Assembly (NCBI GenBank): GCA_021162365.1
Contig: JAGGYW010000013.1
Location: forward strand, 8,960-72,959
Direction: 5' to 3'
DNA: 64,000 bases
Source: Nanobdellota archaeon
Lineage (GTDB): Archaea > Nanobdellota > Nanobdellia > CSSed11-243R1
The position numbers and the translations under genes are program-made. Below, piece by piece: positions 11,423 to 39,503 of the stretch; within the stretch, counting starts at the first letter, position 1; each line of letters starts with the position of its first letter. The notes under the pieces were generated by a model. It did no database searches and was not told where the DNA came from. It was given only the letters and a program-made list of their open reading frames with translations.

Positions 11423-12920
11423 TATAGTGTTTCAGCTGAGAGCAAAGATTGTTGATATTGAAACGGGCGGCATGCCTGTTATTTCTTTAAATGAAGATTT
11501 TGCTAAAGAAAATGATTTTCACAATATGGATAGGGTGGTAGTTAGTTTTAATGGGAAATCTCTTGTTGCAGCAGTTGATACTTCTGAAAAGATAGTTTCA
11601 AAGGAAGAGGTAGGTATATTTGAAGATGTGTGGAAAAAGTTGAAAATTAAGAATGGGGACATTGTTGAGATTACTCCAGTTGGTAAGCCGGAGTCGACAA
11701 AGTATATACGCAAGAAGATGGATAGGGAAGAACTTTTCGATAAAGAGATTAGAGCGATTGTGAAAGACATTGTTGATGAAAAGTTGACAGATGTTGAAAT
11801 GGCAGCATTTGTTGCTGCGTCATATATGGAAGGATTAAGTATGTCGGAGACGACAAGCCTAACTCGTGCAATTGTAGAAACGGGTGGTCGTTTGAAGTTA
11901 AGGAAGAAAATAATTGCGGATAAGCATTCCATTGGTGGAGTGCCCGGAAACAGAGTTACTATGGTGTTGGTCCCCATAATTGCATCTCTTGGAATCACAA
12001 TCCCAAAAACATCTAGTCGTGCTATAACTTCCCCTTCAGGTACAGCGGACACCATGGAAGTTTTAGCAAACGTTAGTTTCTCAACGGAAGAATTAACTAA
12101 AATTGTAGAAAAGACAAATGGGTGCATTGCATGGGGTGGGGCAATTAATCTTGCGGCTGCGGATGACAAGCTTATCAGAATTAGACACCCACTTTCTTTG
12201 GATCCTGAAGGTTTAATGCTCGCATCTGTTATGGCAAAGAAAGTTGCAGTTGGGGCTACTCATGTTATATTTGACTTGCCAATAGGTGAGGAAGCAAAGC
12301 TCCAATCTTTAGGTGAGGCGAGACACCTTGAGAGAGAATTTACAAAACTTGCAGAGAAATTTGGTATTAAGGTTGAAACTTTAGTGACAGATGGAAACAA
12401 CCCAATTGGCAATGGGATCGGACCCAATCTTGAAGCAAGAGATGTTCTTTGGCTTTTAAAGAACGATAGAAGGGGACCTTTAGATTTGAGGAGAAAGTCT
12501 GTCTTGCTTGCAGGTAAACTTCTCGAATTAGTTGGTTATGCAAAGGAAGGAGAAGGGGAGAAAATTGCGGATGCACAGATAGACAACGGAAAGGCGTATC
12601 AGAAGATGAAAGAGATAATTGAAGCGCAGGGTGGAAATCCAAATGTCAATCCAGAAGATTTGCATGTTGGGGAGTTTACATGTGATTATGAAGCTGAAAA
12701 GTATGGTAGAATAACAAATATGAGTAATCATGCTCTCGCGAAGATAGCAAGGGCTGCAGGCTCTCCAGTGGATAAGGAAGCAGGCATTTACATCTATAAG
12801 AAGTATGGTTCTAATGTTAAGCAAGGAGAAAAAATATTTACTGTATACTCTAAAAGTGAAAGGCGCATAGAGCGTGCTATAAAGCTTATGAAGGAATTGA
12901 ATCCTGTTACAATTGAGTGA
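11394..12920 (+). CDS. deoA: AMP phosphorylase (thymidine-phosphorylase family with N-terminal extension).
   Basis: Pyrimidine-nucleoside phosphorylase core (SIGGVPGNRVTMVLVPIIASLG, TSSRAITSPSGTADT) plus the N-terminal domain typical of archaeal AMPpase. Start overlaps the rbcL stop. Confidence 0.85.
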   Translation: MKSGEFTRGDIVFQLRAKIVDIETGGMPVISLNEDFAKENDFHNMDRVVVSFNGKSLVAAVDTSEKIVSKEEVGIFEDVWKKLKIKNGDIVEITPVGKPESTKYIRKKMDREELFDKEIRAIVKDIVDEKLTDVEMAAFVAASYMEGLSMSETTSLTRAIVETGGRLKLRKKIIADKHSIGGVPGNRVTMVLVPIIASLGITIPKTSSRAITSPSGTADTMEVLANVSFSTEELTKIVEKTNGCIAWGGAINLAAADDKLIRIRHPLSLDPEGLMLASVMAKKVAVGATHVIFDLPIGEEAKLQSLGEARHLEREFTKLAEKFGIKVETLVTDGNNPIGNGIGPNLEARDVLWLLKNDRRGPLDLRRKSVLLAGKLLELVGYAKEGEGEKIADAQIDNGKAYQKMKEIIEAQGGNPNVNPEDLHVGEFTCDYEAEKYGRITNMSNHALAKIARAAGSPVDKEAGIYIYKKYGSNVKQGEKIFTVYSKSERRIERAIKLMKELNPVTIE

Positions 12921-19401: not shown

Positions 19402-19475
19402 GGGCCGATAGCTTAACCTGGTAAAGCGCCGCCCTCGCACGGCGGAGACTCGGGGTTCAAATCCCCGTCGGTCCA
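19402..19475 (+). tRNA. tRNA-Ala (anticodon CGC). Intron-less. G3:U70 identity pair. CCA not encoded.
   Basis: Manual cloverleaf. Acceptor GGGCCGA/TCGGTCC, anticodon loop CTCGCAC, T-arm CGGGG-TTCAAAT-CCCCG. Confidence 0.85.
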
Positions 19476-19554
19476 CTAAAACCTTTTTCTTAAAAAGAAA
19501 AAGCTTTACCAAAAAGAAGGAATTGGAGAAGTCTTGAGGAAAAGAAGTTCTAGA
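19476..19554. repeat. tRNA 3' trailer carrying an AT-rich palindromic mini-hairpin (ctttttcttaaaaagaaaaag). Member of the TTTCTT..AAGAAA hairpin family seen elsewhere in the window.
   Basis: Seen in sequence. Confidence 0.4.
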
Positions 19555-20001: not shown

Positions 20002-20229
20002 TAAGTAGTTTTCAAGCTCTCTCTTCTAAATTCAGTGTATTCCTTCACCGTTTGAGATACGTTCATAATACCACTACTATCAAGTAGTGATTACGTATTT
20101 ATATATTTTTCGATAAAGTTTTCCTTCTTTTAGCAAAGCTCTTTTTAGTGCAGGTTTTCTCGTAGAGAAAAAGTGCTAAAGAAAGAAATTTTTCTCTTTG
20201 GTAAAGCTTTCTCTTTCTAAGAGAAAGGT

Positions 20230-20715
20230 TTATTGGTTGTCATATTTCATGACTTCATCTTGAAGCACTTCTAATTTGACTCCTGCTTGTTTGAAAAATT
20301 CCCTGGTTAGTTTGCCAGCATGGTATCTCTTTTTGCAAACGACTCTTTTTATTCCAGCATTGATTATCATTTTTGCGCAGGTTAAGCAAGGCTCCATGGT
20401 GCAATACATCGTTGCTCCATTTATTGCAATTCCATGTTTTGCTGCTTGTACTATTGCATTTTGTTCTGCATGTGTCGTCCTAATGCAATGCATAGATTCG
20501 TTTCCATCCTCATCTATGTATTTCATCATTAAATGCCCGACATCGTCACAATGTGGCAAGCCTGCAGGTGCACCTACATATCCTGTTGATAGGATCTGCT
20601 TGTCTTTTACTATTATTGCTCCACTTTTTCCTCTATTACATGTTGCTCTTTGGGCAACTGCATCAACAATTTGCATAAAATATTCATCCCAACTTGGACG
20701 TGCCATTTGTATCAC
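20230..20715 (-). CDS. dCMP deaminase (cytidine/deoxycytidylate deaminase zinc-binding family).
   Basis: HAEQNAI ... PCLTCAKMII zinc-ligand motifs. Confidence 0.85.
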   Translation of the reverse strand: MIQMARPSWDEYFMQIVDAVAQRATCNRGKSGAIIVKDKQILSTGYVGAPAGLPHCDDVGHLMMKYIDEDGNESMHCIRTTHAEQNAIVQAAKHGIAINGATMYCTMEPCLTCAKMIINAGIKRVVCKKRYHAGKLTREFFKQAGVKLEVLQDEVMKYDNQ

Positions 20716-21228: not shown

Positions 21229-23877
21229 TCACGAGATTATACATTCGCTCCATCCACAATCTTTGCAGACAACACACCCCGCTTCATAAACCAAATTTTT
21301 GCTGCCGCATACCGGGCATTTTTCTATTTCCGGTTTTTCGACAGGCTTGTGCTCTTCGCTTTCTACTTCTTTTTCTTCTGCAATTATTGGAGGTTTTGAT
21401 TCAACTTCTTCTTTTTTCTTTCCAATTTCAATGTATTCATTCATCCACGGTTTCTCAGCAAGGATTTCATTCAACCATTTCATTGCATAATCAGATGGTT
21501 TTGGTTTAACTCGTAGCTCCTTTTTCTCTGAGGTTACGCTAAGCACTTGCGCTGTTTTTGATCCGTCTCTATATACTGTTGTGCCTTTACACCCCATTTC
21601 ATGTGCAATTAAATATGCTTGTTTCACATCTTCGACAGTTACATCATTTGGCATGTTAATTGTTTTCGAAATGGAATCTGTTATTGCTAACTGCAAGACT
21701 GCTTGTGCAACTACATGGTCTAACCAATGGATGTCCATAGATGTTACAAATACATCTCTTATTTCTTTTGGAATTTCTTCTATGCCTTGCACGCTGCCGT
21801 AGTTTTCAGAAATTTTCTTTAATATCTCATCGCTGTAGAGTCCTGCTTCTCTCAACTTCTTTTCGAATACATTGTCTATATAATAAAATGAGCCAACGGT
21901 TACATTTTTTTCATAGACGAGAGAGAAAACTGGCTCAATTCCATTACTTGTATCCGCAATCATGGATATTGAACCTGTAGGTGCATTTGTTGTCACCATT
22001 GCATTTCTTAGCCCATACTTCTTTATCTTTTCAACAAGTTCATCCCAATTTAAGCTCCACAAATCTCTTCTGTAAAATATTTCGACTGGCATCTTCCCGT
22101 TTACATAATCTGTTTCTTTGTAAAGTGGGAATGTACCTCTTTCTTTTGCAAGTTCAATTGAAGATTCGTATGCATAGTATGTTAAGTATTCTGCTAGTTT
22201 CCTCATGAATTCATATCCTTCTTTTGAGTTGTATTTGATGCCCAATTCGAAGAGCAAATCCGCAACACCCATTAAACCAAGGCCGATTCTTCTTGTTTCT
22301 TTCGTTCTGATGTCAATTTCCGGAATTGGGTATTTGTTCATAGTTATTATGTTCTCCAATGCACGTGCAGTGAATTTAATTACTTCTTTATATGTTTCCC
22401 AATCAAAATCTTTCTTCCCATTTCTGTCAATTACAAATCTTGCAACATTTATACTACCTAAGTTGCAGGATTCATATGGATACAATGGTTCCTCGCCACA
22501 AGGATTAGTTACATTTATCTTCCCACCCCTGGCGTTAATTAACACATTTCTTTTATTGACGTTATCGAAGAAAAGCACTCCTGGGTCTGCTTTGTGCCAT
22601 GCATGATATGCAATTGAGTGTAGTAGTGATTTTGGACTTGTGTGTTTCCAAACTTTTTTGGTTCTTGGATTGATAAGTGGGTAATCTGTGTCTTTTGCAA
22701 GGTATTCCCAGAAATCTTTCCATATCCCCACAGATATGTTAAAGTTTTCAAATACGCCTTCCTTGTCTTTTAGTGCAATGAACTTTTCAATTTCTGGGTG
22801 CCAAATTTCTAATATCCCCATGTTTGCTCCTCTTCTGACACCTCCCTGCTTTATTACATCTGAAACGGCGTCTATAATTTTCATGAAGGAAATTGGGCCT
22901 GACGCGCTTCCCATAGTTGATTTAACAACATCGCCTGATGGGCGAATCTTGGAGAAGTTCATGCCGGTTCCTCCACCAGCCTTTTGTATGAGTGCGACAT
23001 CCCTTGCAAGTTTCATTATGGATTCAATGTTGTCCTCTACGTCGAGAGTAAAGCAGGCAGAAAGCATTCCTAGCTTTTTACCGGCATTTATTAGGGTTGG
23101 AGTGTTTGGCATAAATACTTGGTTTACCATTAAATTAAAGTATCTGTCAAAGACTTCTTCGTATTCTTCAAAAGTTCCATTTTGAAGCATGCTCATTAAC
23201 TCGTCAAATCCAATCTTCATTTTTCCTTTGTTTGCATGCTCTTCGTATGCTGAGATAAATCTCTCCAAGTGCCATTTAGTGAGTGTATACTTTCCGATTT
23301 TGATTTTTTTATCCCACGCATCTAAGTTGCCTAAATACTTGGAAATTGTAATTGGTATTTGATACTTCCCATCTTTATCGTAAACTCTCTTATCATAAAG
23401 AATTTCAGAGAGGCCAATGGTTATGGCAACTCTTTGGAATAGCTCTTTTGGAGACTCAATTACTTTTCCTTCATCATCTTTTGTTAGGTATCTAAATGCT
23501 AGGACTCTTAGTGCGTTTACACTAAATCTCTTGTCAATGTCGTCAAGTACTTCTTTGTTTAGAATTTTCTTTTTTTCTTCTCTAATCTCCGTCTTTTTTT
23601 GCCTATATAATATGTATGCTTTGGCGGTTTTTGCATGCCCATTCTCAATTAAGACCTTTTCTACTATGTCTTGGATTTCTTCAACTGTCGGGATTGTGTG
23701 TCCATCATATTTTTCTTCTAGTATTTTAACAACTTGATCTGAAAGGAATTTGGCTCTTTCATAATCTTCTCCACCAACCGCTTTTGCAGCTTTGAATATG
23801 GCTTGGGTTATTTTTTCTTGGTTGAAATCAACTATTCTTCCATCCCTTTTCTTTACTTTTTTAAGGGTTAGTTTCAT
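21229..23877 (-). CDS. nrdJ: Ribonucleoside-diphosphate reductase, class II (adenosylcobalamin-dependent), with N-terminal ATP-cone and C-terminal zinc ribbon.
   Basis: ATP-cone (KRDGRIVDFNQEKI), class I/II catalytic core motifs (NPCGEEPL, radical Cys region), C-terminal CPVCGS...CKDCG. 882 aa. Confidence 0.9.
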   Translation of the reverse strand: MKLTLKKVKKRDGRIVDFNQEKITQAIFKAAKAVGGEDYERAKFLSDQVVKILEEKYDGHTIPTVEEIQDIVEKVLIENGHAKTAKAYILYRQKKTEIREEKKKILNKEVLDDIDKRFSVNALRVLAFRYLTKDDEGKVIESPKELFQRVAITIGLSEILYDKRVYDKDGKYQIPITISKYLGNLDAWDKKIKIGKYTLTKWHLERFISAYEEHANKGKMKIGFDELMSMLQNGTFEEYEEVFDRYFNLMVNQVFMPNTPTLINAGKKLGMLSACFTLDVEDNIESIMKLARDVALIQKAGGGTGMNFSKIRPSGDVVKSTMGSASGPISFMKIIDAVSDVIKQGGVRRGANMGILEIWHPEIEKFIALKDKEGVFENFNISVGIWKDFWEYLAKDTDYPLINPRTKKVWKHTSPKSLLHSIAYHAWHKADPGVLFFDNVNKRNVLINARGGKINVTNPCGEEPLYPYESCNLGSINVARFVIDRNGKKDFDWETYKEVIKFTARALENIITMNKYPIPEIDIRTKETRRIGLGLMGVADLLFELGIKYNSKEGYEFMRKLAEYLTYYAYESSIELAKERGTFPLYKETDYVNGKMPVEIFYRRDLWSLNWDELVEKIKKYGLRNAMVTTNAPTGSISMIADTSNGIEPVFSLVYEKNVTVGSFYYIDNVFEKKLREAGLYSDEILKKISENYGSVQGIEEIPKEIRDVFVTSMDIHWLDHVVAQAVLQLAITDSISKTINMPNDVTVEDVKQAYLIAHEMGCKGTTVYRDGSKTAQVLSVTSEKKELRVKPKPSDYAMKWLNEILAEKPWMNEYIEIGKKKEEVESKPPIIAEEKEVESEEHKPVEKPEIEKCPVCGSKNLVYEAGCVVCKDCGWSECIIS

Positions 23878-23881
23878 TCTC

Positions 23882-24331
23882 TCACCTCTTGAGTGCTTTT
23901 AGTTCTTTTTCAAAATCTTTTGTATCTTTGAAGGATTTATATACCGAAGCAAACCTAAGGTATGCAATTTTATCAACTATTTTTAGTTTTTTAATCACCA
24001 TAGCTCCAATAGTACTGCTTTTGATTTCTGTACTTTTATATCTCCTAATTCTGCGTTCAATATCATCGACTATTTTATCAATTTGTTCTTCGGTAATGGG
24101 TCTTTTTTCGCACGCTTTTAGAATTCCGGCTTTTATCTTCTCTCTTACAAATGGTTCTCGTCTGCCATCTTTCTTTAAAACAAATATATTTGTTCCTTCT
24201 ACTCGCTCATATGTTGTAAATCTTTTCTTGCAGGAGAGACACACTCTACGTCGCCTGTTTACTTCTCCATTAGCAATGCTACGTTTGTCAATCACCTTTG
24301 TATTTAATGAACCACAAAAAGGACATTTCAC
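23882..24331 (-). CDS. nrdR: NrdR transcriptional repressor (zinc ribbon plus ATP-cone).
   Basis: MKCPFCGS...CLSCKKRFTTYE zinc ribbon followed by ATP-cone. 149 aa. Immediately upstream of and co-oriented with nrdJ. Confidence 0.85.
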   Translation of the reverse strand: MKCPFCGSLNTKVIDKRSIANGEVNRRRRVCLSCKKRFTTYERVEGTNIFVLKKDGRREPFVREKIKAGILKACEKRPITEEQIDKIVDDIERRIRRYKSTEIKSSTIGAMVIKKLKIVDKIAYLRFASVYKSFKDTKDFEKELKALKR

Positions 24332-24522: not shown

Positions 24523-26283
24523 ATGTGTGGGATAATAGGGTATATCGGTAGTAAAAATGCTGTTCCTCTTGTAATTAACGGTTTGAGGAATTTGGAGTAC
24601 AGGGGGTATGACAGTGCTGGAATTGCTGCTGTCGTTGATGGTAAGCTTATAGTTAAAAAAGATGTTGGAAAATTAGATGAAGTATTCTCTAAGGTAGATA
24701 TATCTAATTTGAAAAGTAATGTTGCAATTGGGCATACCCGTTGGGCAACACATGGTAAGGTCACCAAGGAAAATGCGCATCCCCACACAGACTGCAAGGG
24801 CGAAATTGCAATTGTTCATAATGGTATAATTGAGAATTATCAGGAACTAAAAAAGGAGTTGGAGTCGAAAGGGCACATATTCAGAAGTGAAACTGATTCT
24901 GAAGTTATAGCACATCTTATAGAGGAGGGTATGAAAACGAAAAACTTTGTGGACGCATTTAATGAGATGATTAAGAAAATTGTGGGGAGCTATGCTATTG
25001 TTGCTATAAACAAAGATGGTAAAGAAATGATAGGAGCAAGGAAAGATTCTCCTTTAGTTGTGGGTATATCAGAAGATGGATACTTTATTGCTTCTGATGT
25101 TCCCTCTTTTTTGGATGAAACTAAAAAGGTTATTTATCTATATGATGGAGATGTGGTTGTTGTTAACAAGAAGATTGTTATTTACCATGATGGCAAGCCG
25201 GTGGAGAGGGATATAGACAGCATAGAGTGGGATGCGGAGCAAGCAAAAAAAGGTGTTTTCAAGCATTTTATGCTTAAGGAAATAAGTGAGCAGGCAGATG
25301 TAATTAAAAGGGCCATTATGCAAGATGATAAAATAATAAATGAAATTGCAAATGAGATAAAAAAATCAAAAGGTGTTTTCTTTGTCGGGTGTGGGACTGC
25401 ATATCACGCTTGTTTGGAAGGAAGTTATATCTTTTCAAAAGTTGCGAATATGCATGTGAATGTTACATATGCTCATGAGTTTCCTAATTATGTTCACTTT
25501 CTAACCCCAGAAAGTTTAGTTATTGCTGTGTCACAATCAGGGGAGACAGCAGATACACTCGAGGCAATTAGGGCAGCGAAAGCAAAAGGTGCTAAAGTGA
25601 TATCTATAGTAAATGTTGCTGGTTCAACTTTAGTTAGGGAGTCAGATAAGGTTTTACTTCAGCATGCTGGACCTGAAATTTGTGTTCTTTCAACGAAGAG
25701 CTATACATCTCAGCTTGCGGTTTTGACTTTACTTGCATACTCTCTTGCCGGAAGACTTGAGGAAGGAAAATCCAAATTAAAAGAATTAATTAGGTATATC
25801 TACTACTTGACTTCAAGGAACACACGAGATTATATAAGAAAACTTGCAGAGAAGCTAAAAGATGTGAAGGATATATACATAATTGGGAGAGATTTACAAT
25901 ATCCAACAGCTCTTGAGGCGGCTTTGAAGATAAAGGAGGTTTCCTACATACATGCAGAGGGATTCGCTGGAGGAGAGTTGAAGCATGGGAACATCGCACT
26001 AATAGAAGAAGGGACCCCATGTATTGTATTTACATCCAAAGAAAATGAGAAGGAAATAATTTCTAATGCGGCAGAGTTAAAAGCGAGAGGTGCATACATA
26101 ATAGGGGTTGGTCCAAGGAATAATGAGGTGTTTGACTTTTTCATCAAAGTTAGAGAAGCAGAGGAGGCAAATTCCATCGTGCAGATAATTCCTATTCAGA
26201 TACTTGCATACCAGCTTGCGATATTGAGGGGGCTCGACCCGGACAAGCCAAGAAACTTGGCAAAAAGTGTGACGGTGAAATAA
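24523..26283 (+). CDS. glmS: Glutamine--fructose-6-phosphate aminotransferase (GlmS). Start corrected to MCGIIGY (catalytic Cys2); the track start at 24403 is over-extended.
   Basis: N-terminal Ntn amidotransferase (CGIIGY), two SIS domains, C-terminal ...SVTVK. Confidence 0.9.
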   Translation: MCGIIGYIGSKNAVPLVINGLRNLEYRGYDSAGIAAVVDGKLIVKKDVGKLDEVFSKVDISNLKSNVAIGHTRWATHGKVTKENAHPHTDCKGEIAIVHNGIIENYQELKKELESKGHIFRSETDSEVIAHLIEEGMKTKNFVDAFNEMIKKIVGSYAIVAINKDGKEMIGARKDSPLVVGISEDGYFIASDVPSFLDETKKVIYLYDGDVVVVNKKIVIYHDGKPVERDIDSIEWDAEQAKKGVFKHFMLKEISEQADVIKRAIMQDDKIINEIANEIKKSKGVFFVGCGTAYHACLEGSYIFSKVANMHVNVTYAHEFPNYVHFLTPESLVIAVSQSGETADTLEAIRAAKAKGAKVISIVNVAGSTLVRESDKVLLQHAGPEICVLSTKSYTSQLAVLTLLAYSLAGRLEEGKSKLKELIRYIYYLTSRNTRDYIRKLAEKLKDVKDIYIIGRDLQYPTALEAALKIKEVSYIHAEGFAGGELKHGNIALIEEGTPCIVFTSKENEKEIISNAAELKARGAYIIGVGPRNNEVFDFFIKVREAEEANSIVQIIPIQILAYQLAILRGLDPDKPRNLAKSVTVK

Positions 26284-26927
26284 TGGAAAGAGATGTAAAG
26301 TATTATTTTAAAAAAGTTGAAGATTTTCCATTTCCGGAGATATTTAAAGTTGATGATGTCATAAAAGTCCTTGACGAAAAGGACAAGTTGTTGTCTAAAT
26401 TTAAGGAATCTGAAATTAAAGGCACGATGGGTAAGAATGTACATTTTGAGGGTGTAGTGATTCTTGAAGAAGGTGCAAGGGTTTTACACAATAGTATCAT
26501 AATTGGACCGGTATATGTAGGCAAAAATACAGTTGTTGGTCCTGATGCACATATAAGGAGCGGCACAATAATCGGTAACAATTGCAAGATAGGAAAAACA
26601 GAGATAAAAGGAAGTGTTATTATGAATAATGTTCGCGCGGACCACTTTGGATATGTTGGTGATTCAATTCTTGGGGATTCGTCTCATTTGGGTGCTGGAG
26701 CTGTAACCGCGAATTTTCGCTTTGATGGAAAGGAAACTTTTGGGCGTCGCAAGCTTGGGGCAATAGTTGGTGACAACACTCAAGTTGGGGTAAATGCAAC
26801 TACACTTCCTGGAACATTTATAGGTTCAAATTCTTGGATATACCCTGGAGTTGTGGTAAGGGGGTTTGTTCCTGAGAATTCTATCTTAAAGTGGAAGCCC
26901 AATTATGAAATTGTTGAAAAGAAGTAA
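26283..26927 (+). CDS. Left-handed beta-helix (hexapeptide-repeat) acyl/acetyltransferase, GlmU C-terminal-domain-like. No nucleotidyltransferase domain.
   Basis: Repeating [LIV]G-x-x-x-x hexapeptides (IGPVYVGKNTVVGPDAHIRSGTIIGNNCKIG...). Directly follows glmS. Confidence 0.6.
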   Translation: MERDVKYYFKKVEDFPFPEIFKVDDVIKVLDEKDKLLSKFKESEIKGTMGKNVHFEGVVILEEGARVLHNSIIIGPVYVGKNTVVGPDAHIRSGTIIGNNCKIGKTEIKGSVIMNNVRADHFGYVGDSILGDSSHLGAGAVTANFRFDGKETFGRRKLGAIVGDNTQVGVNATTLPGTFIGSNSWIYPGVVVRGFVPENSILKWKPNYEIVEKK

Positions 26928-27174
26928 GGCCCCGACGGGACTTTCGTGCAAGCCTTTTCTTAAAAAGAAAAGCCTTGAGGGAAAAGAAGTTTCTTTCCCT
27001 GCAGACTTTCTTTCCTAAAGAAAGGCTGCTTTCGAACCCGCAACCACCTGGTTTCTCCTCTCTTCTTTGCTCAAGCTTTCTTTCTAAGAAAGCTTGTCCG
27101 AAGCCAGGCGCTCTATCCAGGTTGCTTCAACACCTCTTCTTTCTAAGAAAAGGTGCTGATTAAGCTACGGGGCC
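26927..27174 (-). tRNA. tRNA-Arg (anticodon TCG) interrupted by three introns: D-loop, canonical anticodon-loop 37/38, and T-loop 59/60. 248 nt for a ~73-nt mature tRNA.
   Basis: Manual parse of the minus strand. Exons GGCCCCG-TA-GCTT-A..CCTGGATA-GAGC-G-CCTGG-CTTCGG[intron]A-CCAGG-TGGTT-GCGGG-TTCGAA[intron]T-CCCGT-CGGGGCC-T. Introns carry palindromic TTTCTT..AAGAAA mini-hairpins. Confidence 0.6.
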
Positions 27175-27213
27175 ATAAGAAAAAGAGCAATTAGTGCTTA
27201 AAATTATTTCTAT

Positions 27214-29448: not shown

Positions 29449-32400
29449 TCAACAGTTCATGGTTATTGTGATAGTTTGAGTATAACTACTTGCGGCTTGG
29501 TATTGTGGTACTCCTACTCCAAAGTAGGTTGTTATCGAATTTCCTGCTCCAAGATTTGTTGTTATCGCAGCATCTGTTGTTGTCAAGTCAGTTCCGCTTC
29601 CGTATGTAAATGCACTTGTACTCCATTCTGTGTTCCCAACTGCGAATGTGTTTCCTCCTCCATCACTCCAATCTGTTCCTCTAATGGTAACATTTGTTGC
29701 TGTTCCACTTCCAGAGTTGGTAATAGTAACATTTTGGTTTGTGCTTCCAGTATTTGTTCCTGGATTCACACTTCCAAAACTAATTGTGTTTGTGGATAGA
29801 GAAACTACACATGTTTGTGTGTTTAAAATTGTTAGATTTGTGAGTGGGTCATAATAATTGCTATATGTATTTGTTCCGTCCACATCTATTGCCCTGCATC
29901 TCAAATCAACATTTGTTTGGTCAGGGATGTTGGATACGTTCCATACAAATGTGCTTCCTTCGGTATGGTTCCCTATAGTTCTCCATTTTTTAACTAATCC
30001 CCAAGCACATTGGCTACATGATTGGCAGGATGTTTGGCTTGTGTATGTGTCACAATTTAAGTTTCCATTACAAGATTGGGGTACACTTTTTATGCCTGTG
30101 ATGTTCACACAGTCTAGGTAAGCATCATCTCTATTTCCCGAAAACTCTGTTTCAAATCTAATTGTAACCGAGTCATCAAATGTGCAATCGCTTGGAGTAA
30201 TTGTTACACACTGTTCATCTGTGCATCCATTTAGCCATTGGCCTTCCGTACCTTTTTCGTTTGGGCAGTAGGTCCACACTATGTTTCCATCACATTTTAG
30301 GTCTATACACTCTCCCGCCTCTATGCTTGTATAATATGCGGACCAGCTTATGGTTACGTTGGTATATCCTGTAAAGTTGAATGACTTTTCTGTATATGAG
30401 GTAGTGGTATCGTCTTGAAGGTGCCATGAGTAACTTCCTCCACTACTCCCATCATCTTGACAATTACTTGTTACACTACTCCAGTCCGAATCTGATCCTG
30501 GATCAGTCCATCCGTCTGGTCCCGATTCCCAGCCAGTATAGTAAATATTTGTCTTAGATGTTCCTCCTCCCCAGCTGCATCCTGCTGATGAACAATTACT
30601 ACAACTGCTCGAATCGCTGCATGCACTACAGCTTCCATTGTTGTAGCAGGAGTAATCACTATAATTTGCTTCTATAACGTACGTAATTGTATCTCCGTCC
30701 GGATCAGTGGAGCCGGAGCAAGTTATATTTACGCTGTTAGAGAAAGTTCTGTTACAGCTTCCTCCGTCACAACTTATGTTGGTAGGGGTGGTTGGTGGGC
30801 CCTCTTCTCCAAATAGATATTGGGTAGTTGAGTCTCTGCTCTGACTAATTGGGAATATAGCTCTATAGGCACTGCCGTCTTGTTCAAATTGAATCTGTGT
30901 GGCACTTAAGATTTGAGTCCAAATTCCATTTGAGTATTTGTATACCATACCGTTTGCATGGGATAAGTTGGTTACTTCTATGTATAGTTTTTCTGTGCCT
31001 TGGTCCCAATTTGAGTTTCCTGTAATATTGAATTTTATGTCTTTACCTGTATTTCTCTGTATTTTGTATATAAATTCTTTTGAGTCAAAACCAGTTATGG
31101 TACAATTTTCTACAGCAGTTATTGTTGCGGGATTCTCATGAAGAGAGTATATATTTTTTACGGTTGCATTTGAATTTCCGTCATAAAGGACAGTTATTGT
31201 AAATATATCATCATAGTTTTGTATGGAATTTGCGGAATACCAGAATTGATCGAAATAATCACTTCCATTCGTTTCTATATCTATTGTTGAGCTGTCTTGA
31301 TCTGTGGCTCCACTTGGCATTGCCTTTATTATCTTTCCGAATGCTAAATCGTTTGTAGTTGATCCATACCAACTAACCCACGAATTACTTGATTGATCAA
31401 ATACGTCATACACAGAATTTGAAGTTGAGGTTGTTGTGTCTGTCGGTCCCGCTTTGCTTCCGCCAGTATAATGTAAGCCATATGAATCATATCCACTTGT
31501 AGTATTTGTGTCATTTACCACGGTTAAAATTCGTAACCCATCATTGTATGTTCCAGCAAAGTTTATTGTTTTTATTCTTCCTACATAATAGTCATTATAG
31601 AAGTACCAATCTATGTATATCTGGCCCGACCAGTTTACCTCTACAGCGACTCTATAAGAGCCATTTTCTAAAATTGTTATATCTGTTGGAGTTACTTGGT
31701 TCGAGATTATATCGCTTATTGGTACGGTGATAAGTGGTTTGTATACTAATGCTACATAATCTGCTATGTAGCCTTGAGATAATTCTACGTTTGGATCGTA
31801 TTCTTTTGACCAGAAGTCTTTAACGTACCCCCATGATGTATAGGATGTGTTGTTACTGATACATACTTTGTATTTGTTTGTTTCCACAGTTATACATGTT
31901 CCATCTGCACTTACTACATATGCTGGGTCATTTGCAGATATATGGAGGGTGTAATTCTGTCCAGGTGTAACGTCAGCAATTTTTGTCCAGCTTCCTTCAC
32001 ATTCTCTTGAGCTAAAATTCCAATCTTTACATTTGTATATGAAGTTCCCCTTTGGTGTTATGGTTACATTCCCTTCAACAAATTTAACCTTTGGATCTAT
32101 TGCAAAAGATTGAACAGCATCTTGGATATTTGATGGAATATCTAAATCTAAGTCAACTATCTCATTTAATGTGGATTGTATCTCCACATTCTTTAGAGTT
32201 ATTGATTTAACAATGTGGTTTCTTGGAATTAATTTGATAGTATAGTTCCCCTTCTTTACGCTGATTGGAGTTCCTTCGGAGATAGCAATTAGCTTGTTAT
32301 TTTGGAATACTTTCGCAGTTGTTGGTATGTCTTTATTTTCAAAGTCCTTAATTTTTGGTGTGATTACTATGTACATCCTACCAAAATATGACGCGCTCAT

Positions 32401-33426
32401 ATTTGTTTCGTTTTTTGGGAGTTGGAATACAAATACCTCTGATTGATTTCCAACTTGAAGTTCAAAGCGGCTTCCATCCCATTTGTAAATGGTGAGAGTT
32501 ATGTTCTCATTAGGTGGTGCTGGGTATTTACTAAACCCATATGTTACGTTACCTATGATGTAGAATGGTTCCTCTTTTGTAGAGTTATGTGAAAAAACTA
32601 TTACAAAATTATCATTTTTCCAAGAAGTAGACAAAATTTTTACATCAAAGTTTTCGTCATCTTTTATCTTTTCATAATATTTTTCACTGCTCATGTTTTG
32701 GATCGCAGAAACATTTTCTTCTTGTACCTTTACAAATGAATACTGAATTTTGAATATCTTTACTTTTCCATTTCCATGTAATTCAAAGTAGAGTTTATAT
32801 GAAGAATAATTTAACTTTTTATCAAGTAGGTTACATGTTTCTTCGCAGACATAGTTAAGGGGCACAACTCTTGTAGCTTGTGTTGGGGTTTCTCCTCCAG
32901 TTTCGCCTTCTACACCCCCTTTTTCTTTTTGAGGGAGTGCCTTTTTTACATCTTTTATAAGGAATGCCGTCACACCTTTCATGGCAAGGAAGTCTTTCGT
33001 GTTTGCAATTAGGTATCTGTTTCCATCTTTATCCTCGAGGTATATTTGCGCGTCTCCGTCCCCTTCATATACTCCGGAAATTTTTATGGAACTTAAATAG
33101 CCCTTCACTTTGTTTTGTGGTTCCCAATTTACATATTTTGAATTTTCTACAATGATGTTTACATCATCTGTGAAGGAGATAATGTTGCTTTCGGATGTTA
33201 CGAATCCTTCAATTGATGGGGATATGTGTGTTACAAGTGTGTATGATACAATTGAGAGTAGGATGAAGACAATGAAGGGAAGAAATGGTCCCGCCCTCTT
33301 CCCTTTAAGTAACCTTTCTCTTATCATTCCATCAGTTACTTTCTTTTTGATGCCAATTATTTCGAGGGACTTTATCGTTTTTGGGTTTTGAAGATTAACT
33401 TTATACAGTGTTTTCTTGCCTTCCAC
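29449..33426 (-). CDS. Giant (1325 aa by track) surface protein. N-terminal signal-anchor (most plausible start ATG at 33327: MIRERLLKGKRAGPFLPFIVFILLSIV...). Huge Thr/Ser/Asn-rich extracellular region with Cys-rich modules. C-terminal domain is homologous to the 164-aa protein at 28463-28957.
   Basis: ORF track (the track start is GTG at 33426). See finding on the in-frame wHTH-like extension up to 33588. Confidence 0.7.
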   Translation of the reverse strand: MEGKKTLYKVNLQNPKTIKSLEIIGIKKKVTDGMIRERLLKGKRAGPFLPFIVFILLSIVSYTLVTHISPSIEGFVTSESNIISFTDDVNIIVENSKYVNWEPQNKVKGYLSSIKISGVYEGDGDAQIYLEDKDGNRYLIANTKDFLAMKGVTAFLIKDVKKALPQKEKGGVEGETGGETPTQATRVVPLNYVCEETCNLLDKKLNYSSYKLYFELHGNGKVKIFKIQYSFVKVQEENVSAIQNMSSEKYYEKIKDDENFDVKILSTSWKNDNFVIVFSHNSTKEEPFYIIGNVTYGFSKYPAPPNENITLTIYKWDGSRFELQVGNQSEVFVFQLPKNETNMSASYFGRMYIVITPKIKDFENKDIPTTAKVFQNNKLIAISEGTPISVKKGNYTIKLIPRNHIVKSITLKNVEIQSTLNEIVDLDLDIPSNIQDAVQSFAIDPKVKFVEGNVTITPKGNFIYKCKDWNFSSRECEGSWTKIADVTPGQNYTLHISANDPAYVVSADGTCITVETNKYKVCISNNTSYTSWGYVKDFWSKEYDPNVELSQGYIADYVALVYKPLITVPISDIISNQVTPTDITILENGSYRVAVEVNWSGQIYIDWYFYNDYYVGRIKTINFAGTYNDGLRILTVVNDTNTTSGYDSYGLHYTGGSKAGPTDTTTSTSNSVYDVFDQSSNSWVSWYGSTTNDLAFGKIIKAMPSGATDQDSSTIDIETNGSDYFDQFWYSANSIQNYDDIFTITVLYDGNSNATVKNIYSLHENPATITAVENCTITGFDSKEFIYKIQRNTGKDIKFNITGNSNWDQGTEKLYIEVTNLSHANGMVYKYSNGIWTQILSATQIQFEQDGSAYRAIFPISQSRDSTTQYLFGEEGPPTTPTNISCDGGSCNRTFSNSVNITCSGSTDPDGDTITYVIEANYSDYSCYNNGSCSACSDSSSCSNCSSAGCSWGGGTSKTNIYYTGWESGPDGWTDPGSDSDWSSVTSNCQDDGSSGGSYSWHLQDDTTTSYTEKSFNFTGYTNVTISWSAYYTSIEAGECIDLKCDGNIVWTYCPNEKGTEGQWLNGCTDEQCVTITPSDCTFDDSVTIRFETEFSGNRDDAYLDCVNITGIKSVPQSCNGNLNCDTYTSQTSCQSCSQCAWGLVKKWRTIGNHTEGSTFVWNVSNIPDQTNVDLRCRAIDVDGTNTYSNYYDPLTNLTILNTQTCVVSLSTNTISFGSVNPGTNTGSTNQNVTITNSGSGTATNVTIRGTDWSDGGGNTFAVGNTEWSTSAFTYGSGTDLTTTDAAITTNLGAGNSITTYFGVGVPQYQAASSYTQTITITMNC

Positions 33427-33625
33427 TTTTCTAATTAGATGATTTTGTTTGACTAAGTCATTTAAATGTCTGTGCGCAGGTTCGTATGATATCTTGAGTT
33501 TATCTTGTATCTCTTTGATAGAATACCATCTATTTGGATCACTGAATGCTCTTAATACTTCTAAGTAACTGTTTATTTTCTTTATAGTACCACCAATTTA
33601 TAGGAGAAAATAAGCGCTTAAAAAA

Positions 33626-33644
33626 CTATTGGATTATCCAATAG
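33626..33644. promoter_or_regulatory. 19-bp perfect palindrome ctattggat-t-atccaatag upstream of the giant surface-protein gene. Candidate operator for a winged-helix regulator.
   Basis: Seen in sequence. Adjacent TTTTTTAA TATA-like element on the minus strand. Confidence 0.4.
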
Positions 33645-33670
33645 AAGCACTTTTCTTTCTTAAAAAGAAA

Positions 33671-33692
33671 GAAACCTGCACTAAAGAAAGAA
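33671..33692. repeat. 22-nt exact repeat gaaacctgcactaaagaaagaa (second copy at 39280-39301), flanked by a TTTCTTTCTT-AAAA-AGAAAGAAA hairpin.
   Basis: Exact string match between the two loci. Confidence 0.6.
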
Positions 33693-33789
33693 ATTACTCT
33701 TTCCACAACTTACGCTTTGACAAGACTTCGTCTCGGCATAAGCGACGGAGTCGCTCTGTCTCTTCTTCCTAAAAAAGAAAGGGCAGAAG

Positions 33790-34047
33790 AGGGCCCGGTG
33801 GGACTTCCAAGCACTCGCCAAGAGTTTCTCTCTTAGCGCAGGTTCTCTCTTTTCAAAGAGAGAAAGTGCTTTCGAACCCACGACCCCTTGCTTGCCACGC
33901 TCCCTCTTTCTTTCCCGAGGGTTTCTTTCTCGGGAGAAAGAAAGGCTCTTAGGAGGCAAGTGCTCTATCCAAGCTTTGCCACGCACCCATTCTGCCAGCG
34001 CTTTTCCGTGCACGCTTTTTTAAAGGGTGCGTTTGAGCTACGGGCCC
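33790..34047 (-). tRNA. Candidate tRNA-Arg (anticodon CCT) with multiple introns: D-loop, anticodon loop, T-loop 59/60. The variable region is atypically long (possible extra intron), so the model is tentative.
   Basis: Manual parse. GGGCCCG-TA-GCTC...CTTGGATA-GAGC-A-CTTGC-CTCCTAA[intron]GCAAG-...-GTGGG-TTCGAA[intron]T-CCCAC-CGGGCCC-T. Introns contain gtttctttctcgggagaaagaaagg-type hairpins. Confidence 0.45.
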
Positions 34048-34101: not shown

Positions 34102-34704
34102 ATGGGTGAGCTGATAAGGAATTTTAATTTCTTGAAAGAAAATGGGTTTAATGTAGCTGAATTTGGATTTGCTAAGACGATAGGAGATGCAATAGACATT
34201 GCGGATAGGATAGGGTATCCTATAGTACTTAAAATTCCTTCACAGATGCATAAAAGTAAAGTTGGTGGCGTTTTGACGAATATTCATAATTTAACTGACT
34301 TAAAGACTTTGAGTAAGGATTTTGTAGATACCTTAGAGGAGAGAGGGGTTTTCTTTGATGGGTTAATTGTTCAGAAGCAAATAAAGGGTGTCGAGTTAAT
34401 TGTCGGACTAAAGGAGGATAAAGTTTTTGGAAGAGTAATTTTGCTTGGCAGTGGAGGTACTCTTGCAGAGATGATTAATGATGTTACATTTAGGGTTTGT
34501 CCAATTACAGAGAGAGATGCGGTGGAGATGGTTGGAGAGATAAAGGCAAAAGCACTTCTGTCAAAGGAAGGGGTATCCTTAAATGAGCTTACAGATTTGC
34601 TTGTTAAAGTTTCTAAGATAAATATAAAAGAGATGGATTTGAATCCTGTGATTTGTAATTCTAATGGATGTTGGATTGTTGACGCAAGAATTCTTAAGGT
34701 GTAA
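34102..34704 (+). CDS. ATP-grasp domain protein, acetate--CoA ligase (ADP-forming) beta-subunit-like. Start corrected to MGELIRNF.
   Basis: IGYPIVLKIPSQMHKSKVGGV... typical of the ACD beta/ATP-grasp_5 family. Weak call. Confidence 0.5.
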   Translation: MGELIRNFNFLKENGFNVAEFGFAKTIGDAIDIADRIGYPIVLKIPSQMHKSKVGGVLTNIHNLTDLKTLSKDFVDTLEERGVFFDGLIVQKQIKGVELIVGLKEDKVFGRVILLGSGGTLAEMINDVTFRVCPITERDAVEMVGEIKAKALLSKEGVSLNELTDLLVKVSKINIKEMDLNPVICNSNGCWIVDARILKV

Positions 34705-35971
34705 GCCGTTCTGGGTCTCTTGGGGTTAGGCTTGCCTCTCTTATGTTTTGTAGTCCAAGAATTAACATGGTTAGTCTTTCTATGCCGATTGCAAATCCGC
34801 CATGGGGTGGGATACCATATTTGAAGAATCTTAAGTGATCGAATGTTTCCGGATTTAGTCCCTTTTCAATCATTTGAGATTTCCTTTTTTCATAGTTTTC
34901 TTCACGTAATCCACCAGTTGTTATTTCAATACCTTTGTATAATAAATCGAAAGACAGCGTGTTCTCCCCTTCTTTTTTTGCATAGAATACTTTGTGCTTG
35001 AATGGGAAGTGTGTTAGGAATACGAAATCGGAATCGTGCTCTTTTTTAGCCCATTCGCAGAGTGCTTTTTCCCCTGCGTGTGTTAAATCACCTTCCTCTG
35101 TTTCGACGCCCATTTTTTCTACAATTTTTTTCGCTTCTCCAAATTTTATTCGTGGTATTTTCTTTGGGAAGTTGAGAGTTACATTATAAACTTGGATTGC
35201 ATTTTCGTTTTTGATTTTTTCAAACAGATACCTTAACATTTTTTCTTCAAAATTTAATAGTTCATCGAAGTTATCTGTAATCCACTCAACATCAAATGAG
35301 TTATATTCACATAAATGTCTTATTGTGTGGTGTGGTTCCGCCCTGTAAACATTCCCTATTTCATATACCTTTTCTAATCCACCACTTAGTGCGAGCTCTT
35401 TGTAAAATTGAGGAGATTGTGCTAAGTATGCCTTTTTGTCAAAGTAATCAACTTCGAAGTATTCTGTGCCCCCCTCTGTGGGTACTCCAACAAGTTTGGA
35501 GGTGTTTATTCTAATAAACTCATTTTCATCGCAGAATCTTGAAAGGGTATTTATTATTTTGCTTTGGAGCTTAAAGATTTCATTTACTTTTGGATTGCGG
35601 ATATCTATAAATCTCCAATCTAATCTTTTGCTAAGATCCGTTTCAATCTTCCCAGAGATATCAATTGGGATTGGTGTTTCCGCTTTGGAGAGAATTTTTA
35701 TTTCACTTGGGATTAATTCTTTTCCTCCTCGCGCTTCTTTGCTGTCAATCATTTTTCCTTTAACGAAGATATAGGATTCTTGTGTCGGTTCTAATGAGAA
35801 TACTTCGTCCGGCACTTTTGCTTTTGGCATAGTTATCTGCAGTGTTCCTGTCGAATCTCTGAGAATGATGAACTTAATTTTTTTCAAGTCTCTGTAACTT
35901 TCGACCCACCCAGCTACAGCTACACTTTGCAAATTAAATGCATCTTTAATAGGAACTCGTTTTTCTAACAT
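34694..35971 (-). CDS. aspS: Aspartyl-tRNA synthetase, archaeal type (class IIb; AsnRS cannot be fully excluded).
   Basis: N-terminal OB fold, LAQSPQFYKELA, motif 2/3 (FRAE-like NVYRAEP, GGFAIGIERLTMLILG). Confidence 0.75.
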   Translation of the reverse strand: MLEKRVPIKDAFNLQSVAVAGWVESYRDLKKIKFIILRDSTGTLQITMPKAKVPDEVFSLEPTQESYIFVKGKMIDSKEARGGKELIPSEIKILSKAETPIPIDISGKIETDLSKRLDWRFIDIRNPKVNEIFKLQSKIINTLSRFCDENEFIRINTSKLVGVPTEGGTEYFEVDYFDKKAYLAQSPQFYKELALSGGLEKVYEIGNVYRAEPHHTIRHLCEYNSFDVEWITDNFDELLNFEEKMLRYLFEKIKNENAIQVYNVTLNFPKKIPRIKFGEAKKIVEKMGVETEEGDLTHAGEKALCEWAKKEHDSDFVFLTHFPFKHKVFYAKKEGENTLSFDLLYKGIEITTGGLREENYEKRKSQMIEKGLNPETFDHLRFFKYGIPPHGGFAIGIERLTMLILGLQNIREASLTPRDPERLTP

Positions 35972-39125: not shown

Positions 39126-39348
39126 ACTCTAAAGTTAAAATAGTTGCTTTAATAAATCTTTCGCAGCACCTTCTTAGAAAGAAGCTGCACCAAGAAAATC
39201 TTTCTCTTAAAAAGAAAGCTTAACTAAAGAAATTTTTTTCTCTTAATGCATGTTCTCTTTTCTAAAGAGAAAATGCTAAGAAACCTGCACTAAAGAAAGA
39301 ACATTTCACTTTTCTTTTTTGTAAAGCTTTTTAAGAAAAAGGTTTTAA
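39126..39348. repeat. Intergenic block packed with TTTCTT..AAGAAA mini-hairpins (cttcttagaaagaag; tctcttttctaaagaga) and the 22-nt repeat (39280-39301).
   Basis: Seen in sequence. Same motif family as the tRNA introns. Confidence 0.45.
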
Positions 39349-39422
39349 TGGGCCCGCTGGGATTTGAACCCAGGTCCCAGCCTCCGCAGGGCTGTATTCT
39401 ATCCAAGCTAAACTACGGGCCC
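39349..39422 (-). tRNA. tRNA-Arg (anticodon GCG). Intron-less. CCA not encoded.
   Basis: Manual cloverleaf. Acceptor GGGCCCG/CGGGCCC, anticodon arm CAGCC-CTGCGGA-GGCTG, T-arm CTGGG-TTCAAAT-CCCAG. Confidence 0.8.
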
Positions 39423-39503
39423 AAATTTAAAAAGCAGAGTTTGCTTTATAAATGTTGATTTATGCTTCTCTCCAGTGACGAAATCTTTTTAACTTAACTA
39501 TTT

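Follow-up and report, generated by a model that had tools for sequence, protein, structure and literature searches.

A transfer RNA gene for arginine, tRNA-Arg(UCG), is split by three introns in the 64,000-nucleotide stretch analysed here (contig JAGGYW010000013.1 of the Nanobdellota assembly GCA_021162365.1; hereafter the window), and we put the probability at roughly 0.88 that it is a functional gene of a DPANN archaeon, spliced at bulge-helix-bulge (BHB) motifs. In the model that we propose from the sequence, the minus-strand precursor of about 250 nt would carry three protein-spliced BHB introns, one in the D-loop (I1), one at the canonical position 37/38 of the anticodon loop (I2) and one inside the T-loop at 59/60 (I3). 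The splicing endonuclease EndA would cut each motif at its two bulges, the exons would be joined by an RtcB-type ligase that probably also circularises the introns, RNase P and RNase Z would trim the ends, and CCA would be added. I3 would be a near-strict substrate with the T-stem as its outer helix, and I1 would be presented when the 5' strand of the D-stem pairs with a copy-like stretch of the D-stem 3' strand that the intron itself carries.

The locus and its spliced product

The two ends of the locus form a perfect 7-bp acceptor stem, GGCCCCG (27174-27168, minus) with CGGGGCC (26934-26928), as an earlier note on this DNA had pointed out. Because the two halves are reverse complements of each other, the strand needed to be decided, a detail that the earlier note left unstated. 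The minus strand alone displays the landmarks of a tRNA (U8, A9, A14, A15, G18G19, A21, the anticodon loop CUUCGGA and GGTTCGAA), which follow one another as U8-A9, GCUU-A14-A15, ...GGAUA-GAGC, the anticodon loop and GGUUCGAA. The base after the acceptor stem, at 26927, is also the final base of the TAA stop of a convergent plus-strand hexapeptide-transferase open reading frame (ORF; 26283-26927), and by way of this adjacent gene the identical locus was located on two independent metagenome contigs. An exact 24-nt probe from exon 2 had 0 matches among GTDB genomes, so that set does not include the species itself.

Splicing in silico yields a 74-mer, GGCCCCGUAGCUUAACCUGGAUAGAGCGCCUGGCUUCGGACCAGGUGGUUGCGGGUUCGAAUCCCGUCGGGGCC, that ARAGORN calls as tRNA-Arg(tcg) with a clean cloverleaf. 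A20 and C35 are classical ArgRS identity elements, and the spliced product carries both, together with an A15-U48 pair; its GC content is about 65%, against 36% for the window. A profile hidden Markov model was built from 75 distinct intronless tRNA-Arg(TCG) genes out of metagenomes (training range 59.5-81.6 bits), and it scored the spliced product at 66.7 bits, inside the range of intronless homologues, and the unspliced locus at 27.5 bits. The search with a 21-nt exon core, which retrieved mostly unrelated intronless tRNA-Arg genes from metagenomes, served both for this profile and as a reference for the mature layout, which is the same in 110 intronless homologues. This supports the identity that the earlier note had proposed for the gene. 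The predicted I2 and I3 junctions coincide with the profile optimum; the I2 junction can slide by +1 or +2 without altering the mature sequence, and four of four central pairs are found at 37/38 only.

The earlier note had also remarked that automated annotators usually miss such genes, which is true here of ARAGORN and Rfam. ARAGORN returned 0 genes at the locus even with intron options and relaxed thresholds, and Rfam gave nothing at gathering thresholds and, at E<=10, only spurious miRNA- or sRNA-like matches, none of them tRNA-like. Within the window, ARAGORN reported two ordinary tRNA genes, Ala-CGC at 19402-19476 (+) and Arg-GCG at 39348-39423 (-).

Bulge-helix-bulge motifs at the three junctions

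Junctions were placed by the archaeal rule that a 4-bp helix lies between two 3-nt bulges, each with its splice site behind nucleotide two, and the strict 3-4-3 form (hBHBh') and the relaxed forms (HBh', hBH) were taken as defined in PMC3239211. All three junctions have four of four central pairs and 3-nt bulges, that is, a 3-4-3 core. Four of four central pairs arise at 4.4% of arbitrary junction pairs in the same sequence, which for three junctions corresponds to a chance of about 8e-5.

At I3 the central helix is UUCG(54-57)/CGAA with bulges AA|A and AG|U, the T-stem is the outer helix on the exon side (H1=5), and the intron helix GCAGCC/GGCuUGC (H2=4) has one extra A opposite the 5' bulge, which makes the motif a near-strict hBHBh'. 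I1 combines the central helix GCUU(10-13)/AAGC and bulges AA|U and AA|C with a 14-bp intron hairpin (H2). I2 pairs CUUC(32-35) with GGAG in its central helix, has bulges GG|A and AA|A, and takes the 7-bp anticodon stem as outer helix; an 11-bp hairpin on its intron side leads into an unpaired linker of 13 nt (H2 about 0), so that the motif is relaxed. The unconstrained minimum free energy (MFE) fold already shows the I3 and I1 motifs, and a fold forced to show all three reaches -106.8 kcal/mol against an MFE of -111.3 kcal/mol, a difference of 4.5. In the thermodynamic ensemble, the pairs of I3 have probabilities of 0.88-1.0 and those of I1 of about 0.65. The D-loop interruption of the earlier note stands, but its description of the 5' part as 'AGC-type' is imprecise: exon 1 ends in ...GCUUAA (A14 A15), and the junction lies at 15/16.

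Orthologues in related genomes

The AspRS of the window (34694-35971) is 100% identical to a protein of an NCBI 'Nanoarchaeota archaeon' metagenome-assembled genome (MAG), with relatives at 85-64% identity, and the loci of these relatives (given here by L-numbers) conserve synteny. The host is an archaeal DPANN ('Nanoarchaeota' MAG).

In L009, the 85% relative, the tRNA-Arg(TCG) orthologue is uninterrupted at the I1 site, where the sequence GCTTAACTTGGATAGAGC is contiguous and the gene reads GGCCCCGTAGCTTAACTTGGATAGAGC...; the lack of I1 there confirms the exon 1-exon 2 junction and the 10-nt D-loop. L009 has introns at 37/38 and 59/60, and their sequences are unrelated to those of the window: exons are identical at 59 of 61 positions, and same-site introns align at the level of shuffled controls. 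In L004/L005 (the 82% relative, GCA_027007025.1) the gene has a 37/38 intron only, as a strict hBHBh' motif; I1 and I3 are absent, the T-loop is intact (GGGTTCAAATCCC), and the acceptor stem carries compensatory changes (for the T-stem 3' ends of L004 and L009, manual values were used). Related genomes, in other words, carry one or at least two of the three introns in the same gene, a presence/absence polymorphism. The combination of conserved exons with unrelated introns is what would be expected of a functional gene with fast-evolving, dispensable inserts, and not of a pseudogene. The three interruptions of the earlier note, including those at 37/38 and in the T-loop at 59/60, are in this way borne out by in-silico splicing, by BHB geometry and by syntenic orthologues with colinear exons.

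Points against splicing, the enzyme and alternative explanations

Several observations weigh against a functional, BHB-spliced gene. Relative to a strict hBHBh' motif with both outer helices, which classical alpha4/alpha'2 EndA requires, two of the three motifs are relaxed: I1 has no exon-side outer helix (H1=0), which makes it an HBh'-type, and the intron side of I2 is an internal loop of 3 x 13 nt rather than a clean bulge. The ensemble probability of the I2 BHB is about 0, because a CCUGG in the D-loop competes for the 3' strand of the anticodon stem. T-runs within I3 (TTTTCTTTTT) are possible archaeal terminators. The profile mildly favours a D-loop 1 nt shorter (71 against 66.7 bits), because its training organisms, mostly unrelated, have 9-nt loops; the 3' junction of I1 is accordingly certain only to within 1 nt, with the close orthologue L009 supporting the 10-nt loop. 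Finally, a Pfam search of about 60 window ORFs found no EndA or RtcB, a tblastn search with a verified M. jannaschii EndA probe found no EndA in about 1.1 Mb of relatives' loci, and RtcB was likewise not found there.

The competing CCUGG of the D-loop duplicates the CCUGG of the anticodon-stem 5' strand, and both pair with CCAGG (27054-27058 / 27117-27121 / 27104-27108, minus). Since both copies can do so, thermodynamic folding of the precursor is mispaired, and on this model the duplication could either impose a splicing order or require protein chaperoning.

With no exon-side helix at I1 and none directly on the intron side at I2, the enzyme would have to tolerate relaxed motifs, and a broad-specificity EndA, already suggested in the earlier note, would be a reasonable candidate. 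An alpha4 EndA with an L3 loop is reported for several DPANN lineages, including Pace- and Woesearchaeota, and is associated with increased tRNA disruption, the L1 (CSL) loop from which TACK EndA derives its broad specificity is reported absent from DPANN, and 'unidentified disrupted tRNA genes' were anticipated in DPANN lineages (Kaneta et al., PMC5829648).

The alternative that survives best, though we regard it as improbable, is a dead gene: a pseudogene inactivated by three insertions of a palindromic hairpin repeat, CTTTCTT-NNN-AAGAAAG, with inserts that are never removed. This repeat is indeed enriched in the window (14 matches against about 1 expected), it occurs outside introns as well, both in the 3' trailers of tRNA genes and once elsewhere between genes, and a locus invisible to standard tools would suit a dead gene. 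Yet its exons are intact and strongly constrained even where the introns of L009 are unrelated, its acceptor-stem changes relative to L004 are compensatory, and every insert ends in a site-specific tail that forms a 4-bp helix and 3-nt bulges exactly at the junction. There is no alternative tRNA-Arg(UCG) within the window, and the putative promoter box is conserved, the GAAATAATTTTAAAC box being present also upstream of the orthologues in L004 and L009. Four of the window's six tRNA genes, from different codon families, share this design, which is found in relatives as well; that all of these should be dead is implausible.

Removal without EndA and BHB recognition, either by self-splicing (group I-like) introns or by trans-splicing of separately transcribed pieces as in split tRNAs, is less probable again. 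Archaea do have group I introns, as do tRNA genes of ultrasmall bacteria (PMC6125680, PMC13011429), Nanoarchaeum has split tRNAs (PMC4033280), and the failure to locate EndA in the window or in the relatives' loci searched would sit comfortably with either mechanism. The inserts of 38-90 nt are, however, far too short for the core of a group I/II ribozyme, which takes more than 200 nt, Rfam intron families gave no match to them even at E<=10, and BHB geometry is present at all junctions. A split or permuted gene is countered by four exons that stand in order, on one strand, within 247 nt, behind one upstream promoter-like box, and by introns without promoter-like elements or leader complementarity. 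A chance assembly of unrelated tRNA-like fragments between a 7-bp inverted repeat is effectively refuted, for although inverted repeats of this length and octamers resembling a T-loop turn up often (the window shows no enrichment of GGTTCGAA with <=1 mismatch), the four pieces build a full cloverleaf whose score falls among those of genuine genes and which has syntenic orthologues in at least three related genomes.

Other disrupted tRNA genes in the window and across DPANN

Disruption is not confined to the tRNA-Arg(UCG) gene: four of the six tRNA genes of the window are disrupted, with ten introns in total, the other three being tRNA-Arg(CCT), tRNA-Gly(GCC) and tRNA-Val(TAC), all on the minus strand (Table 1). 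These hidden genes were found by inspection of motifs, GC islands and gaps, the fourth by GC-island and gap inspection. A brute-force approach, in which all combinations of BHB-like candidates were removed and the products submitted to ARAGORN, returned many junk 'tRNAs' and was rejected as too permissive.

The three sister genes follow the same junction logic as the tRNA-Arg(UCG) gene. In the D-loop intron of all four genes, nucleotides 10-13 (10-12 in tRNA-Arg(CCT)) pair with an intron-terminal mimic, and 'AA|' follows. tRNA-Arg(CCT) has its introns at the same three places as tRNA-Arg(UCG) and was missed by ARAGORN and Rfam; a spurious 110-aa ORF (33681-34013) is even called over it, and the same is seen in L006 (8432-8761). 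The central helix of its D-loop motif is just 3 bp, and sequence comparison places the junction probably at 14/15 rather than 15/16, because G15-C48 is then kept, as in orthologues. tRNA-Gly(GCC) lies immediately upstream of a divergent Taw1-like gene, and in L174 its orthologue carries one intron more, a third, at 53/54. The tRNA-Val orthologue in L174 has a T-loop intron and, instead of the D-loop intron of the window, an unrelated one of 91 nt, and the copy in L175 is intronless.

Table 1. Features of the tRNA-Arg(UCG) locus, sister tRNA genes and hairpin-array trailers (window coordinates unless a relative's locus is named).
Feature	Position	Strand	Description
tRNA-Arg(UCG) gene, 247-nt precursor body	26928..27174	minus	mature nt 1-72 and three introns; CCA not encoded
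Putative archaeal TATA/BRE-like box GAAATAATTTTAAG	27198..27210	minus	24-36 nt upstream of tRNA nt 1; putative promoter
Exon 1, 15 nt	27160..27174	minus	acceptor 5' strand, U8 A9, D-stem 5' strand GCUU, A14 A15
Intron 1, 38 nt	27122..27159	minus	D-loop 15/16
Exon 2, 24 nt	27098..27121	minus	D-loop 3' part CCUGGAUA with G18 G19 A20, D-stem 3' strand, G26, anticodon stem 5' strand, C32 U33 U34 C35 G36 G37
Intron 2, 45 nt	27053..27097	minus	canonical 37/38
Exon 3, 22 nt	27031..27052	minus	A38, anticodon stem 3' strand, variable loop UGGUU (with U48 of the A15-U48 pair), T-stem 5' strand GCGGG, T-loop UUCGAA (54-59)
Intron 3, 90 nt	26941..27030	minus	T-loop 59/60 (TTCGAA|...|T); three hairpins
Exon 4, 13 nt	26928..26940	minus	U60, T-stem 3' strand CCCGU, acceptor 3' strand CGGGGCC
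Discriminator base U73	26927	minus	sequence reading
tRNA-Arg(CCT), 257 nt	34047->33791	minus	introns: D-loop 59 nt; 37/38 57 nt (33949-33893); 59/60 67 nt (33870-33804)
tRNA-Gly(GCC), 177 nt	56541->56365	minus	introns: 15/16 61 nt (GUCU/GGAC); 37/38 45 nt (UUGC/GUGA)
tRNA-Val(TAC), 179 nt	55698->55520	minus	introns: 15/16 49 nt; 53/54 58 nt (central helix CCCC/GGGG)
Hairpin-array trailer	19477-19520	plus	
Hairpin-array trailer	39130-39347	minus	
Hairpin-array trailer	33620-33790	minus	
Hairpin-array trailer, L004	6466-6640		
Hairpin-array trailer, L004	18323-18480		

Exon 2 of tRNA-Arg(CCT) was found in 43 GTDB genomes, 40 of them labelled archaea, two Methanosarcinales and one Eubacteriales; the 40 belong mostly to DPANN lineages (Aenigmatarchaeota, Woese-/Pace-/Nanoarchaeia, Nanohaloarchaea). 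Among these genomes the architecture of the gene ranges from intronless up to three introns. Of 21 independent DPANN genes with an interrupted T-loop, 19 are fitted best by a junction at 59/60, with three or four of the four central pairs, and on the evidence of these genes T-loop 59/60 introns are a widespread DPANN class. D-loop introns are rare, having been seen in the window, L174, L134 and L171. L134 (CAYJRV010000017.1, about 2203-2225, minus) contains an apparent tRNA-Arg(CCT) with D-loop, 37/38 and T-loop interruptions, and L171 (JAGXOK010000001.1) an apparent tRNA-Arg(CCT) with D-loop and T-loop interruptions. Three-intron tRNAs are, from such sequences, probably scattered, unannotated, through public DPANN MAGs. 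The lineage guess of the earlier note, which named DPANN among a few archaeal lineages, is upheld; multi-intron tRNAs in DPANN are less rare than it implied, as several public DPANN MAGs show them.

In three Aenigmatarchaeota (L137, L151 and L157), tRNA-Arg(CCT) has a 16-nt insert at 53/54, GCAGG|TGAGTTTCTCTGCGAA|TTCGAGTCCTGC, which is a different, minimal class of T-arm intron.

Intron families and hairpin modules

All-against-all local alignment of the introns, with shuffled controls, revealed families that cross gene and position. The 53/54 intron of L174 tRNA-Gly and the 59/60 intron of L006 tRNA-Arg(CCT) are identical at 81 of 82 positions (z=67), and I3 of the tRNA-Arg(UCG) gene matches the former at 67 of 79 (z=30) and the latter at 65 of 78 (z=28). 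Further pairs are I1 of window tRNA-Val with I1 of L174 tRNA-Gly (42/44 identical) and I2 of window tRNA-Arg(CCT) with I2 of L009 tRNA-Arg(TCG) (41/44). Introns at orthologous sites, by contrast, are often unrelated, as in the case of tRNA-Gly I1 in the window and L174 (z=1.8). Within a family the core is conserved and the last 6-8 nt vary, matching each insertion site. I1 and I2 of the tRNA-Arg(UCG) gene had no full-length relatives among the sequences compared, and only hairpin-level matches of 18-19 nt. The closest reference relative, GCA_024277205.1 (L138, L174), has a tRNA-Gly with three introns and a tRNA-Val with two, and more distant relatives (L175, L176) have intronless copies.

Judged from these alignments and from close relatives with one or at least two of the introns in the same gene, the introns are evolutionarily young and mobile, and I3 is a diverged copy of an element found at other tRNA genes and positions, because its family occupies different tRNA genes and positions in relatives. 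The pattern mirrors intron transposition among Thermoproteales tRNA genes, as described in the two reviews of Fujishima 2010 (PMC4033280, PMC4090602), and in the searchable literature we found no report of tRNA intron transposition for DPANN. A target-site duplication was considered for the CGAAAG repeat that flanks I3 and was set aside, the repeat being explained by the palindromic TTCGAA T-loop together with the BHB requirement; there is no such repeat at Val 53/54.

The CTTTCTT-NNN-AAGAAAG hairpin recurs within these introns, and its enrichment in the window does not extend to generic long hairpins (80 and 226 per strand against 122-152 in shuffles). Arrays of this intron-type hairpin make up the 3' trailers of tRNA genes, always with the pyrimidine arm first in the direction of transcription (Table 1), and trailers of different tRNA genes are homologous, namely Ala and Arg-GCG in the window and Arg-GCG and Arg-TCG in L004. 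Positions 18361-18380 of L004 match nt 4-23 of intron 3 of the tRNA-Arg(UCG) gene at 20 of 20. The trailer hairpins may act as terminators or processing signals, or may supply modules to introns. One perfect hairpin of this class, TAAACCTTTCTCTTAGAAAGAGAAAGCTTTA, stands isolated at 20202-20232 between two protein-coding genes; adjoining no tRNA gene, this copy suggests for the module a general intergenic role, for instance as a terminator. In addition, a 24-nt repeat, TTCTTTCTTTAGTGCAGGTTTCTT, stands downstream of tRNA-Arg(CCT) and tRNA-Arg(GCG) (about 33675-33700 and 39285-39310, both minus); it is also found in L138, with variants (..GGTGCAG.., ..GGTCCAG..) in the trailers of relatives.

It is tempting to speculate, at a little under even odds, that this DPANN lineage harbours actively mobile, modular BHB introns, with cores that move or are exchanged among tRNA genes and positions and tails that are re-tailored at each site. 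The core would consist of a closing helix and one to three CTTTCTT/AAGAAAG hairpins and would settle at positions 15/16, 37/38, 53/54 and 59/60, the last 6-8 nt would be complementary to the four bases of the exon that lie upstream of the 5' splice site, and the hairpin modules in the trailers could be a reservoir or a by-product. If so, sister genomes with one, at least two and three introns in a single gene would provide a natural time series of intron gain, replacement and loss, and the long-unknown mechanism of insertion, be it reverse splicing, ligase-mediated integration or gene conversion, would become directly testable.

Host and neighbouring genes

The remaining gene content of the window, with several very large ORFs that have no Pfam match, the archaeal ribosomal proteins S3Ae and S15, Taw1, ArgRS and AspRS, is typical of DPANN. 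A form III-like RuBisCO large subunit is followed by a glycosyl-transferase-3/PYNP-type (nucleoside/AMP) phosphorylase (10127-12920, +), a pairing that represents archaeal AMP salvage and is common in DPANN. A ribonucleotide reductase (RNR) with a Ribonuc_red_lgC barrel and an ATP-cone stands beside an NrdR-like repressor and a CobA/BtuR-type corrinoid adenosyltransferase, and an anaerobic class III NrdD is also encoded (RNR loci 21229-24331, -, and 61720-63813, +), which amounts to two RNR systems in a small genome. Two of the large ORFs without Pfam match, at 2369-7078 (+, 1569 aa) and 29449-33426 (-, 1325 aa), probably encode DPANN surface proteins, and a protein with an Ig-like domain comes after the second; the L004 orthologue of the large ORF has 1150 aa.

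Comparison with known systems

With four of the six tRNA genes of the window invisible to ARAGORN and Rfam, and spurious ORFs placed over such genes, DPANN MAGs that are judged on 'missing' tRNAs, on completeness or on reduced decoding capacity would be misjudged systematically. Hidden genes of this kind are the gap flagged by Kaneta et al. (PMC5829648). D-loop and T-arm introns with relaxed motifs, together with an EndA that presumably has no CSL loop, lead to the prediction of broad-specificity cleavage by a different structural solution. Near-identical introns in different tRNA genes and positions, alongside unrelated introns at orthologous sites, make the lineage a tractable comparative system outside Thermoproteales.

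Three introns are the recorded maximum per tRNA gene (PMC4033280), and intron positions 53/54 and 59/60 were already known (PMC4090602). The nearest likeness is with the multi-intron tRNAs of Thermoproteales (Sugahara et al. 2008; Fujishima et al. 2010), which, as presented in PMC4033280 and PMC4090602, have up to three BHB introns, at the canonical position as well as at non-canonical ones that include 53/54 and 59/60, relaxed BHB motifs, similar introns in different tRNA species that are read as transposition, and rapid gain and loss between close relatives. The host in the present case is a low-GC (36%) DPANN and not a crenarchaeon, however, and the introns are built of pyrimidine-arm/purine-arm hairpin modules that are also found in tRNA 3' trailers. 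By analogy, the enzyme solution is probably different from that of TACK EndA, because the L1 (CSL) loop is reported absent from DPANN.

ARMAN-2 (Ca. Micrarchaeum), with an epsilon2 EndA (PMC3239211, PMC3488258), is likewise a DPANN host with a T-loop intron at 59/60; this intron, in tRNA-Cys, has a relaxed motif and is cleaved in vitro by ARMAN-2 EndA (PMC3239211). It differs in being a 13-nt intron of hBH type, whereas I3 is of 90 nt and near-strict hBHBh'. For the D-loop, the precedent is pre-tRNA-Thr2(UGU) of Aeropyrum pernix, in which a D-loop BHB intron is cleaved in vitro by A. pernix EndA, which removes it alone, more slowly than an anticodon-loop intron (PMC3241643). That gene has a single intron and is served by a crenarchaeal (alpha-beta)2 EndA with CSL, whereas the D-loop motif described here has no exon-side helix and recurs after nt 15 (14 or 15 in tRNA-Arg(CCT)) in four tRNA genes. 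The layout of D, anticodon and T introns in one tRNA gene, with BHB-dependent removal, is matched by C. merolae (PMC9602550), a eukaryotic nuclear gene processed by a eukaryotic Sen complex, and no common descent is implied. To these known multi-intron tRNAs, the present locus adds a DPANN host, dense disruption and comparative evidence of intron mobility.

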